From IMG/VR virus record IMGVR_UViG_3300020477_000013, positions 137,586 to 201,585 of that record: a DNA stretch of 64,000 bases. The stretch is one strand, 5' to 3'. The position numbers were made by a program, and so were the translations under genes. This document shows positions 37,534 through 64,000 of this stretch, one piece after another. The notes below the pieces were generated by a model that was not told the DNA's origin, did not search any database, and worked only from the letters and a program-made list of their open reading frames with translations. This DNA comes from a virus (lineage: Duplodnaviria > Caudoviricetes). Every line of letters begins with the position of its first letter. The first letter of the stretch is position 1.

Positions 37534-37609
37534 GCCCTCGTAACTCAGCAGGCAGAGTAGCGGGCTTTTAACCCGAAAGTCGTAGGTTCGAAACCTACCG
37601 GGGGCACCA
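37534..37609 (+). tRNA. tRNA-Lys(TTT)
   Basis: Cloverleaf, CTTTTAA loop, CCA. Confidence 0.93.
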
Positions 37610-37655
37610 AACACTTCTGTTCCAGGTATCAAAATGATATATCATGCCATGATAT

Positions 37656-37818
37656 GTCACGCCGAGGATGGAAGCCTTAAGGAACGACAATCCTAACTGT
37701 TGAGCTGCTACTCCAGTTAGACAAATCGTTCGCCGTTGCAGCGGAAACCGGAGCCTTGGCACAGCCACCCGGGCAAGCGGTGACGGGGGCATGCGCCGGT
37801 TAGCCCGGCGTGTCCCCC
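37656..37818 (+). ncRNA. Unclassified multi-helix structured RNA
   Basis: Nested complementary segments of 5-14 bp; GC-rich island without a credible ORF. Confidence 0.55.
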
Positions 37819-37872
37819 TAGCTTGTTTGTTTAGAGACTAAGACATAAATTTTTAAAATTAGGAGTTTAACC

Positions 37873-61537: not shown

Positions 61538-62228
61538 AATGTTTCCTTATATCCCAAGAAATTTTGTTCAGTTCATAAGCCTGTTTCTTTTTGGTGCTGG
61601 GGCAATCGTCATTGTAGCTGGCGGATGGGAGGATACAATGAGCCGTGCTATTGGGATATGTCTTATGGCTGGATCAATCTGGTTCGTCATGATGAGTGAA
61701 TCTGTTTTTCTAGGTAAGGTTCAAGCACAGATGCACCAAGTCCTAGATACGCTCAGCGCAAAGAGGGAAGCTGAGATTCAAGAGCTGCTAGATTTTCTTA
61801 AGGGGTCTAAGTTGGCATCAACCCCTATGGACAGCTGGGATGGTGTGAAGGCGATGGTGACCACTTTACCCTACCCAGCATTTTTACTTTCTCCGTCAAT
61901 GGAGATCATCAAGACGAACGATCATATGACAGACTTGCTAGGGTATGAACAAAATGCCCTAAACGGAAAGCCTGTTTATCTTATCAACGACATCACCCTC
62001 TTGTCTCATACTGCTAACGTTGCTCGGCGTGAAGAATATATAGATAAAGAACACCTCTCAATGAGATACATGTATATGCACAAAGATGGTAGCGGGGTGG
62101 TTGGTTCGCTTCACGTAATCAAGGTCATTGATGGCGCTTTTTTTATGGTCTTCCATCCGGACACTAACAACATGATCACTGACAATGACATGAATAGGAT
62201 ATTAACAAGAAAAAATGTGGCACCCTAG
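61527..62228 (+). CDS. Two-TM protein with a PAS domain
   Basis: PYPAFLL...N...LLGY...L-x-GK; HKDG...V-x-x-S. Confidence 0.7.
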   Translation: MKARMFPYIPRNFVQFISLFLFGAGAIVIVAGGWEDTMSRAIGICLMAGSIWFVMMSESVFLGKVQAQMHQVLDTLSAKREAEIQELLDFLKGSKLASTPMDSWDGVKAMVTTLPYPAFLLSPSMEIIKTNDHMTDLLGYEQNALNGKPVYLINDITLLSHTANVARREEYIDKEHLSMRYMYMHKDGSGVVGSLHVIKVIDGAFFMVFHPDTNNMITDNDMNRILTRKNVAP

Positions 62229-62296
62229 TGCAAAATGTCCTAGCATATTGTATAATATAAATGTTGGAGGGGAAAGGAATCAATCCCCAAGGAGAA
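62228..62296 (+). promoter_or_regulatory. Promoter plus stem-loop plus RBS cassette
   Basis: GTGCAA-N17-TATAAT, GGGGA...TCCCC, AAGGAG. Confidence 0.8.
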
Positions 62297-62303
62297 ACAA
62301 CGA

Positions 62304-62591
62304 ATGCTTCGAGGAATGATTAACGATCTTCAAGACATGACTGACAACCAGCTTCATGAGCTTAACAATGCGATTATCGCACAGCTTAAGTTTAATCGTG
62401 ACCGCAAGGCTGCTGCTAATCGAGCTGCCTTCCAGGCTGGCGATCGAGTCCAGTTTATCGGGCGGCATGGAAAGATGATTGGTACGATTAAGCGGGTCAA
62501 GCGAAAGAAGGCCATCGTCACCGTCAACGCTATCGATAACATCCATCACGGTAATTGGGACGTTCCTCTGGGCATGCTGTCTGCAGCCTAA
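62304..62591 (+). CDS. Early protein, helix plus SH3/KOW-like domain
   Basis: FQAGDRVQF; no ATA, TTA, AGR or AAA codons. Confidence 0.8.
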   Translation: MLRGMINDLQDMTDNQLHELNNAIIAQLKFNRDRKAAANRAAFQAGDRVQFIGRHGKMIGTIKRVKRKKAIVTVNAIDNIHHGNWDVPLGMLSAA

Positions 62592-62607
62592 ATAAATAAA
62601 ATGTGGG

Positions 62608-62725
62608 AGACACGGGCGATCTACCAGCATTCAAGATCACCGGGCACTTTCGGGTGGCATGCCGGTTGCGGTGCTGGAGTCGTTGCGGAAGCGGGGTCGA
62701 AGTACTGACCATTTAGGCCGTGTCT
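62608..62725 (+). ncRNA. Unclassified structured RNA (about 118 nt)
   Basis: 8-bp closing stem AGACACGG/CCGTGTCT enclosing several helices. Confidence 0.55.
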
Positions 62726-62792
62726 AGATAGAGAAGTTGGGAACTCTATCACTTTTGTTCTTTGATGTCATATTTGAAGAAGCCATGGGCCC

Positions 62793-62821
62793 GTGTAAAA
62801 ATACGGGTTTTGTTTTAGTAT
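62793..62821 (+). promoter_or_regulatory. Promoter variant GTGTAA-N17-TAGTAT
   Basis: Upstream of uvsE. Confidence 0.55.
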
Positions 62822-62837
62822 GGGGTATGGAGGCAGT

Positions 62838-63761
62838 ATGTCAGTTAATCTAGGATATGCGTGTATTAATACCACGCTACAAAAGCAATCAAAAATTATG
62901 TGTAATCGTGGTATGATCAAACGCACATGGCTAGCCAAAGGCATGCCGTATGCCAGCACGCTAGCTCTTTCAAATGTGCGAGGCCTGCGTGAGGTTGTCA
63001 AGTGGAACAACGCTAATGACATTAATGTATATCGCATTACATCTTGTCTATTCCCGTGGATGTCTGAGTATGACATTACACAGCTACCAGACTATAATGA
63101 TATCGCTGCTATTCTTGCCGATGTAGGTTGTATTGCACGCCAGTCCGGCCAGCGTCTCTCATTTCATCCAGGCCAGTTTTGTGTGTTGGCTAGTCCCAAC
63201 GAGTCTACTGTAGTCAAGTCCCTTCGCGAGCTTGATCAAACAGCACAGATTATGGACATGCTTGGCATGCCTAAATCACCAGCGGCCAAGATTAATATTC
63301 ATGTCGGTGGTGCATATGGTGAACGTGATAATGCATTAGCTCGTTTCTGTACAGCGTTTAAACGCCTTAGTTATTCCGCCCAGTCACGCCTTACGGTTGA
63401 GAATGACGATAAGCCTAATCTATATTCTACCAAAATGTTGTATGATGGTGTGCACAAGCGCATCGGCATTCCCATTGTGTTTGACTCGCACCATTTTGCC
63501 ATCGGCCCACAGGACCTTGACTATCATGACTCATATTATCTAGCGCGTAGCTCTTGGCCGACGGGCATCAAGCAACAGGCACACCACAGTAACAGCAGGC
63601 GTACGTACGAAGATCCTACTGCAAGCAAGCCGGCACACAGTACATGGTTCTATACGCCATTTGAGTCATATAACGAACCAACCGACGTTGTTCTCGAGTG
63701 TAAAGCTAAGGAGCTGGCGGTCTTCAAATACCGTAAGGATTTTATGAGAAAAGCCGCTTGA
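62838..63761 (+). CDS. uvsE: UV-damage endonuclease UvsE/UVDE
   Basis: LGYACIN, YRI, RLSFHPGQF, IHVGG, LTVEND, FDSHH, ECKAKE. Confidence 0.92.
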   Translation: MSVNLGYACINTTLQKQSKIMCNRGMIKRTWLAKGMPYASTLALSNVRGLREVVKWNNANDINVYRITSCLFPWMSEYDITQLPDYNDIAAILADVGCIARQSGQRLSFHPGQFCVLASPNESTVVKSLRELDQTAQIMDMLGMPKSPAAKINIHVGGAYGERDNALARFCTAFKRLSYSAQSRLTVENDDKPNLYSTKMLYDGVHKRIGIPIVFDSHHFAIGPQDLDYHDSYYLARSSWPTGIKQQAHHSNSRRTYEDPTASKPAHSTWFYTPFESYNEPTDVVLECKAKELAVFKYRKDFMRKAA

Positions 63762-63764
63762 CGC

Positions 63765-63835
63765 GTGCAAAATAATGATCCCCGGGGTATAATATAAATG
63801 TCTGGAGGGGATGGTCCCCAAAGGCAAGGAGAAAA
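63765..63835 (+). promoter_or_regulatory. Promoter plus stem-loop plus RBS cassette
   Basis: GTGCAA-N17-TATAAT, GGGGA-TGG-TCCCC, AAGGAG. Confidence 0.8.
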
Positions 63836-63836
63836 A

Positions 63837-64000
63837 ATGACTCGCTTCACGAAAGAAAACCTCGTCAAAGACGGAAAGTACGTTTACTACAGCCCAACCG
63901 GCAATCCCTACGCGGACGACGCCAAGTTCGTTGCTCGATTCAAGGTTGCTGGGATTGGTAGCTACATGACTCACCTCCGAAAGAACTGGACGGTCGAGGA
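63837..64000 (+). CDS. Partial early hypothetical protein (runs off window)
   Basis: ATG after cassette RBS; open frame MTRFTKENLVKDGK... Confidence 0.65.
   Translation, partial: MTRFTKENLVKDGKYVYYSPTGNPYADDAKFVARFKVAGIGSYMTHLRKNWTVE

Follow-up and report, generated by a model that had tools for sequence, protein, structure and literature searches.

The window is the whole stretch of DNA that was analysed, 64,000 nucleotides covering positions 137,586 to 201,585 of the IMG/VR virus record IMGVR_UViG_3300020477_000013 (Duplodnaviria, Caudoviricetes). Near its 3′ end, the plus strand carries a conserved RNA unit of 148 nt (62603–62750) that extends from a GUGGG leader to the end of a terminal hairpin, P5; models R1 and R2 match 62598–62765 with 178 and 119 bits, respectively. 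Judged by sequence comparison, the unit is one member of an uncatalogued family of small structured RNAs of uncultured marine T4-like phages. The element has a G + C content of 52% (genome 43.6%) and is present as a single copy in the 201,585-bp record. It is preceded on the same strand by an ORF of 95 amino acids (62304–62591, taken from the ORF list) and, further upstream, by a sigma-70-like promoter (62228–62256, plus strand; GTGCAA, 17 nt, TATAAT). The promoter was read from the sequence; a strict consensus scan misses it because GTGCAA is a poor match to TTGACA. The RNA closes a unit headed by this strong promoter, in keeping with the original prediction, which had placed it at the 3′ end of a strong transcript. 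Two near-identical cassettes (62228–62300 and 63765–63838), each with GTGCAA-17-TATAAT, ATAAATG, a hairpin with a GGGG arm and AGGAG (Shine–Dalgarno), lie ahead of the 95-aa ORF and the window's last ORF, respectively, and drive them; the same promoter cassette is found directly 5′ of the RNA in two other family members (L055 and L098). Downstream, a 3′ tail (62751–62816, plus strand, from the terminator scan) consists of a U-rich run after P5 followed by a strong intrinsic terminator (62787–62816). The next gene (62838–63761, plus strand) encodes a UvdE UV-damage endonuclease (Pfam PF03851, 1.4e-49).

Neither neighbouring gene accompanies the RNA. The 95-aa ORF has a sub-threshold Pfam match, no PHROG match and no relatives in viral contigs; the flanks of the RNA differ among homologues, and this ORF is not linked to it elsewhere. 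UvdE homologues on 25 viral contigs, including the two closest (L001 and L002, 84–87% amino acid identity), have no element upstream, and the UvdE gene is not functionally linked to the RNA. As UvdE loci occur without the RNA and the 95-aa ORF has no relatives, the RNA moves independently of its neighbours in the window. The nearest upstream tRNA gene is 10.3 kb away. The window copy is located in the 3′ untranslated part of an mRNA, not beside tRNAs, and could remain part of that mRNA.

In the overall fold, P1 stacks directly on P2a, a four-way junction connects to P2, P3 and P4, and P5 follows at the 3′ end; all parts lie on the plus strand. The GUGGG leader (62603–62607) is unpaired and nearly invariant, also in members found with patterns that lack it. 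P1 is formed by 8 bp between 62608–62615 and 62718–62725. P2 (62616–62683) is made up of a base helix, P2a (4 bp, 62616–62619 with 62680–62683), which covaries between CCA/UGG and CGA/UCG, and a distal domain (62620–62679) of variable length. The distal domain has a long form in the window, common to the window, L029, L058 and L099 types; across the family it ranges from a 4-nt loop (tetraloop) to an insert of about 110 nt, and L098 and L143 contain an additional insert. P3 (62684–62693) is a 3-bp hairpin with a GNRA tetraloop, GGAA in the window and GUAA in most members; two of its pairs are invariant in 63 of 63 members. P4 (62695–62710) is a 5-bp hairpin, the loop of which (AAGUAC in the window) varies in sequence. 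A 7-nt joining strand, J4/1 (62711–62717; alignments A2 and A3), ends in a conserved AGG. P5 (62727–62750) is a 7-bp hairpin with the 10-nt loop A-AGUUGGGA-A. Conserved nucleotides are concentrated at the junction as well as in P3 and the P5 loop. The family splits into two subtypes, of which the common one has CCAGAG...CG-UGG-UUGCGUAAGCGUG and that of the window has CGAUCU...AG-UCG-UUGCGGAAGCGGG. A check by eye for pseudoknots with the GUGGG leader, J4/1 and the P4 and P5 loops revealed no complementarity that holds in both subtypes.

The five pairings of the original prediction were all located where it had put them. AGACACGG (62608–62615) pairs with CCGTGTCT (62718–62725) as P1; CCAGCAT (62624)/GTGCTGG (62671) and ACCGG (62639)/CCGGT (62662), the latter helix capped by CAC-UUUCGG-GUG, are found within the variable P2; the GGAA-loop hairpin corresponds to P3 (62684–62693) and GGTC/GACC (62695–62710) to P4. 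The GUGGG leader, P2a and P5 lie beyond that list, which also did not cover the membership of the family in tRNA arrays, the main clue from the relatives.

A single-sequence ViennaRNA fold of the element reproduces the same pairings. The fold energy is not better than that of shuffled sequence (z = −0.81 for 62600–62735 and −1.51 for 62606–62754; z = −2.09 for the minus strand), and therefore thermodynamics alone cannot separate the element from chance. Two short ORFs of 35–37 amino acids (62601–62716) overlap the element, and this overlap would be consistent with a short protein-coding gene at this position. The reading frame of the conserved block differs between the window and L026, so the block is not coding; the ends of the ORFs differ in homologues as well, and substitutions are compensatory for pairing rather than synonymous. 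A site acting at the DNA level fares no better, as the element always lies on the transcribed strand and, G-U pairs being common in the family alignment, pairing of equal quality is not seen on the opposite strand. We regard an explanation by a short ORF or a DNA site, without an RNA, as having next to no probability.

Searches against known RNA families left the element without a match. At the gathering threshold, Rfam 15 (4227 models, including 5S, 4.5S/SRP, 6S, tmRNA, RNase P, riboswitches and small ribozymes) identifies six tRNAs in the window and none of its families on the element (62598–62765). The same holds for a permissive scan of 62200–63000 with E up to 10 and for scans of 12 homologous loci with E up to 1, in agreement with the original description of the RNA as unclassified. 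The permissive scan gave a chance U11-like match on the minus strand. On the 3′ tail (62751–62816), it gave a RybB-like match (RF00110; E 0.16 in the 801-nt search) and an overlapping MicC-like match (62749–62824) that is weaker still (17.3 bits, E 9.1). RybB identity for the tail was rejected, as the match scores 20.3 bits with a required cut-off of 40. The tail and the RybB seed region have the 12-mer UUCUUUGAUGUC in common; a part of the tail, CACUUUUGUUCUUUGA, is kept in L054 and L104, where the continuation is different. ARAGORN detects neither a tRNA nor a tmRNA at the element, and a literature search for core sequence strings of the RNA returned no paper.

Relatives were obtained from other phages. 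A DNA search of whole related virus records revealed an 82% match to 62679–62756 in two records; in both, the match is located inside a tRNA gene cluster, directly 3′ of an intron-containing tRNA. The three variants (window, L029 and L026) contain five compensatory pairs, and model R1 was built from them. Viral, metagenome and genome contigs were scanned with sequence patterns, and the candidates were confirmed with R1. This gave 63 distinct full-length members (alignment A3) from marine viral and metagenome contigs, representing at least 63 phages. The RNA is 103–192 nt long across the family (median 129 nt). Two metagenome loci (L052:2806–2903 and L080:11229–11326) resemble the family in nothing but the block of P4 and J4/1, GGGGUCGAAGUACUGACCAUUCAGGCCG, for an R1 score of about 18 bits; these blocks may be chance matches or remnants.

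In A3, 99.8% of 1632 cells are in standard pairs and 19 of the 26 modelled pairs show compensatory (both-side) changes: 6/8 in P1, 2/3 in P2a, 4/5 in P4 and 7/7 in P5. P3 never shows compensatory variation. None of 500 column shuffles reached the observed values, and sliding the partners by one to three columns reduced pairing to 25–47%. As A3 is fitted to the model, 16 diverse members were also aligned with plain MAFFT and folded with RNAalifold. This repeat again gave P1, P2a, P2b, P3 and P5, with compensatory changes in 21 of 30 pairs; RNAalifold pairs a J1/2 nucleotide with one of J2/3, lengthening P2a to 4 bp. Because the members were found by sequence patterns, the apparent conservation of the pattern parts is biased; each part was, however, free to vary in the sets of members found via other patterns. 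P3 and the GUGGG leader are constant in the set recovered via P4; in members found through the leader or P3, the P4 stem changes in a compensatory manner and its loop is free (AAGUAC, GAUUU, UGGAUU, GUGAU). P3 is absent from two of the three search patterns. The AGG of J4/1 is part of one pattern and is retained too in members from the others. The covariation that the original prediction had put forward as a check on its proposal bears out a conserved, structured non-coding RNA, and the compensatory changes in these alignments show purifying selection that maintains the fold.

The record encodes a T4-type gp23 major capsid protein (PF07068, 217.8 bits). Among cultured phages, the nearest capsids are those of Flavobacterium phage immuto (51.6% identity) and Microcystis phage Mel-JY01 (49.8%); the capsid of Rhodothermus phage RM378 is more distant (38.8%). 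Model R2 finds no match in immuto, Mel-JY01 or three uncultured megaphage records, which carry the nearest capsid or UvdE relatives, and blastn with the window copy and a typical member finds none among 50,697 phage records, a collection that may lack records very close to the window. Two complete relatives, G001 and G003, carry the RNA. It is absent from the related virus record G002, which is rated complete, and is therefore dispensable. Together, its absence from the searched cultured phages and from G002 identifies it as an accessory gene of an uncultured marine clade. Among bacterial genome contigs there are three matches, on MAG contigs of Legionellales, Flavobacteriales and Dehalococcoidia, of which at least one (L142) carries a tRNA array. 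We take these to be mis-binned phage contigs, and hence they do not identify a host.

In many other phages, the RNA has tRNA genes as neighbours. As ARAGORN misses intron-containing tRNAs, the counts are lower bounds: a same-strand tRNA gene is located within 500 nt in 27 of the 63 members and an antisense one in none; 13 of the 19 upstream tRNAs within 500 nt are Arg(UCU); in 14 members, P5 is followed at 4–12 nt by the start of the next tRNA; and in L134, L140 and L069 the preceding tRNA ends 1–5 nt before GUGGG. The strand of the RNA gene is that of the surrounding genes without exception. L055, L098 and L144 have their own promoter directly upstream, with no ORF in between, and others, the window copy among them, have unrelated ORFs before or after them. 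A U-run follows P5 in about half of the family. Clustering of flanking ORFs identified no gene that is always adjacent. Downstream, the neighbours differ between members (tRNAs, promoters, unrelated ORFs), and this diversity speaks against an RNA that regulates a single specific gene in cis.

Several further features were noted at these and related loci. In the tRNA island of related phages, group I introns (RF00028, 49–70 bits) are located in tRNA genes (L026:1163–1455, 1808–2006 and 2456–2640). The most frequent true ORF nearby encodes a basic protein of about 50 amino acids (for example, L111:2022–2192, L056:1904–2059 and L090:4193–4348, and in the phage's own genome, outside the window, G000:C1:133198–133341). 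It is found at 18 loci within 3 kb, always on the same strand, has the motif RNW-x-AV-x-AHF-x-(S/T)GAG-x-H-x-DKKK and no Pfam or PHROG match, and may resemble ArfA, a ribosome-rescue factor. Another structured RNA without a catalogued family, about 165 nt long and here called module c, starts with GAGGCCUUGG and ends with CCCCUCU. At 14 or more loci it immediately precedes or follows the element (for example, L042:353–517, L135:2063–2228, L108:9275–9440 and L050:1953–2118, and on the minus strand L088:511–676 and L053:911–1076). Compensatory changes are seen in 13 of its 40 predicted pairs (10 sequences); Rfam has no match to it in L042, and blastn finds no copy in the genome to which the window belongs. 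Another two GC-rich modules, also conserved, one with GUCGUCUGGAGCCGAAAGGCU and the other with GGUCCGAAAGGAGGAGCUCAAAGAGGCGC, are located about 170–400 nt upstream of the element and downstream of a TATAAT promoter (L050, L057, L073, L088, L038, L137 and L108). The linkers between modules are short and A/U-rich, and the order of modules varies between phages. Such arrays resemble chains in which several small RNAs are strung together with tRNAs.

Three rival functions were weighed. As a cis-acting element, the RNA could be a structured 3′ end or 'punctuation' module that resists 3′ exonucleases, or a guide for the processing of polycistronic tRNA or mRNA. The window copy, after an ORF and before terminators, has a position that suits this role; so does the place of other members in arrays between separately processed RNAs, and the U-run after P5 in about half of the family resembles an intrinsic terminator. 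Many members, however, have no U-run after P5 and adjoin a tRNA, L055, L098 and L144 have their own promoter and no upstream gene, and the conservation of the junction, P3 and the P5 loop is far above what a stabiliser or terminator needs. We consider a cis-acting role unlikely. More doubtful still is a riboswitch-like sensor: a small ligand bound at the conserved four-way junction would decide whether transcription ends at P5 or continues into the tRNAs or genes beyond it. Conserved nucleotides in the junction with variable peripheral stems are reminiscent of an aptamer, and P5 comes directly after P1, often with a U-tail; yet the downstream genes are mutually unrelated (tRNAs, promoters, assorted ORFs), and in several members the U-tail is missing. 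Conservation extends to the P5 loop itself, an uncommon trait in an expression platform. The known riboswitch families give no match, and a conserved alternative pairing of the P1 3′ strand with P5 was not seen. A generic riboswitch was rejected because the RNA does not consistently precede functionally related genes as part of their 5′ UTR. Cleavage by the RNA itself, as a self-cleaving or catalytic unit that helps to cut the arrays, would be compatible with a compact multi-stem junction with invariant nucleotides and with the location in arrays of small RNAs with short A/U-rich linkers. Against it, the Rfam ribozyme families do not match even with E up to 10, no conserved candidate cleavage site was identified, and host RNase P and RNase E suffice for processing beside tRNAs; we give catalysis very little credence.

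The P5 loop deserves comparison with tRNA. In textbook numbering, the consensus of the tRNA D-loop is A14 R15 N16 N17 G18 G19 N20 A21. In our reading against this numbering, the family loop A-AGNNGGGA-A reads like a D-loop: its conserved A, G, GG and A correspond to A14, R15, G18-G19 and A21, and two variable positions correspond to 16 and 17. The RNA has no T-loop, anticodon arm or 3′ CCA, and tRNA mimicry is therefore at best partial. A tRNA at the element was rejected, as ARAGORN and RF00005 detect the six true tRNAs of the window but not the element, P4 and P1 are separated by seven unpaired nucleotides, and there is neither a 7-nt anticodon loop nor a UUCRA T-loop. A tRNA-Sec (selC)-like reading, prompted by the 8-bp stem, was rejected for want of a UCA anticodon loop and an acceptor-adjacent T-arm. 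The element could still descend from a tRNA gene, degenerate or rearranged, and be carried without function by travelling with the tRNA island. Its association with tRNA arrays, the D-loop-like P5 loop and an acceptor-like 8-bp P1, followed by G-CCA in most members, are in line with such a relic. We think this descent highly improbable, given that ARAGORN and the Rfam tRNA model do not detect the element, that it is also found away from tRNAs (as in the window), and that each variable helix shows compensatory changes while unpaired nucleotides stay invariant across divergent phages, which together show purifying selection on this fold.

Knowledge of small stable RNAs in the tRNA clusters of phages goes back to the 1970s (species 1 and 2 of T4). 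To our knowledge, none of them has a known function. The family RNA is similar in size to T4 rnaC (species 1, 139 nt) and rnaD (species 2, 119 nt), and both are non-coding RNAs of T4-type phages on the tRNA strand, a few nucleotides from tRNA genes. The T4 order is tRNA-Arg(UCU), rnaD, rnaC, and Arg(UCU) is also the commonest upstream neighbour in the family; a T4-like position (in a tRNA cluster, on the same strand, after Arg(UCU)) is seen in the family but not for the window copy. Homology to rnaC or rnaD was rejected: with filters off, the best R1 match in T4 68000–76000 has 9.5 bits and lies on the D-arm of tRNA-Gln. The folds differ as well, as rnaC is predicted to have a 3′ tRNA-like T-arm (GGUUCGAAUCC), whereas the family has no T-loop but a four-way junction and a 3′ hairpin. 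The family is thus new and well supported, and its kind, the stable RNAs of tRNA clusters, has been known since T4. The roles of rnaC and rnaD are still unexplained (PMC3014915). GOLLD and ROOL (Weinberg et al. 2009, 2017) are structured RNAs of unknown function that often occur in phages or prophages and near tRNA genes, with which they are possibly co-transcribed (PMC5737381). A preprint describes both as assembling into multimers (bioRxiv 10.1101/2024.12.08.627333). GOLLD and ROOL are about 580–800 nt long, come mostly from Firmicutes and relatives and are Rfam families, whereas the family described here has 103–192 nt, belongs to marine T4-like phages and, in the window and in 12 homologous loci, matches no Rfam family.

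Two further RNAs were compared with the family. The RNA at 37733 (window 37634–37818) belongs to the same phage, lies beside tRNA genes, as many family members do, and has no Rfam family. A shared CGTTGC...GCGG segment had been noted between the two; the letters are present in both, but they amount to a 6-mer plus a 4-mer, and kinship did not hold up, the two being separate families: the family model R2 has no match at 37600–37850 with filters off, and blastn finds this RNA in none of the loci examined. Bacterial and phage Y-RNA-like RNAs of the YrlA type are small and have tRNA-like features, and some reportedly lie in phage tRNA arrays (Chen et al. 2014). The element has no match to YrlA (RF02553), and the weak YrlA matches in homologous loci fall on true tRNAs; unlike YrlA, the family has no T-arm. 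Ro60/TROVE (PF05731) is absent from the phage's own genome (record 73% complete), in which no RtcB gene was found either; the control genomes match PF05731.

We prefer to read the family as trans-acting stable small RNAs that mature together with tRNAs, to which we assign a probability of roughly 0.55. In the trans-acting reading, the RNA would be transcribed from sigma-70-type promoters, its own in L055, L098 and L144 or that of an upstream gene in the window. Host tRNA-processing enzymes would then release it: RNase P would cut where the next tRNA begins, and RNase E together with exonucleases would free the RNA after the previous one. The tight packing between tRNAs suggests that RNase P and the tRNA 3′-end machinery set the ends of the RNA. 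The product would accumulate as a stable species and act in trans. Most speculatively, the conserved junction, P3 and the D-loop-like P5 loop might bind a protein of the tRNA or translation machinery; the RNA would then act as a decoy that draws off a host enzyme or nuclease directed at tRNA, or as the partner of a phage protein. A tRNA-mimic or protein-binding role of this kind is purely an inference.

A narrower form of the trans-acting reading can be put forward tentatively, with a small chance of being correct. The RNA would be one of at least four to five uncatalogued array RNAs and a partial tRNA mimic, in which the 12-bp stacked P1–P2a helix and the D-loop-like hairpin could titrate or misdirect a host factor directed at tRNA, for example an anticodon nuclease of anti-phage defence or a tRNA-modifying enzyme. 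If this is true, the phage would have in this RNA a device for counter-defence or for taking over translation, and the class to which the 50-year-old puzzle of T4 rnaC and rnaD belongs would gain its first functional handle. Numerous divergent members and their clear covariation, along with a compact conserved core and a variable arm of modular build, make the family a well-defined object for study. Together with the uncatalogued RNAs beside it, the family suggests that the 'tRNA islands' of abundant marine T4-like phages are mixed arrays of tRNAs and other structured RNAs, and such arrays bear on how phages take over or protect translation in ocean bacteria.
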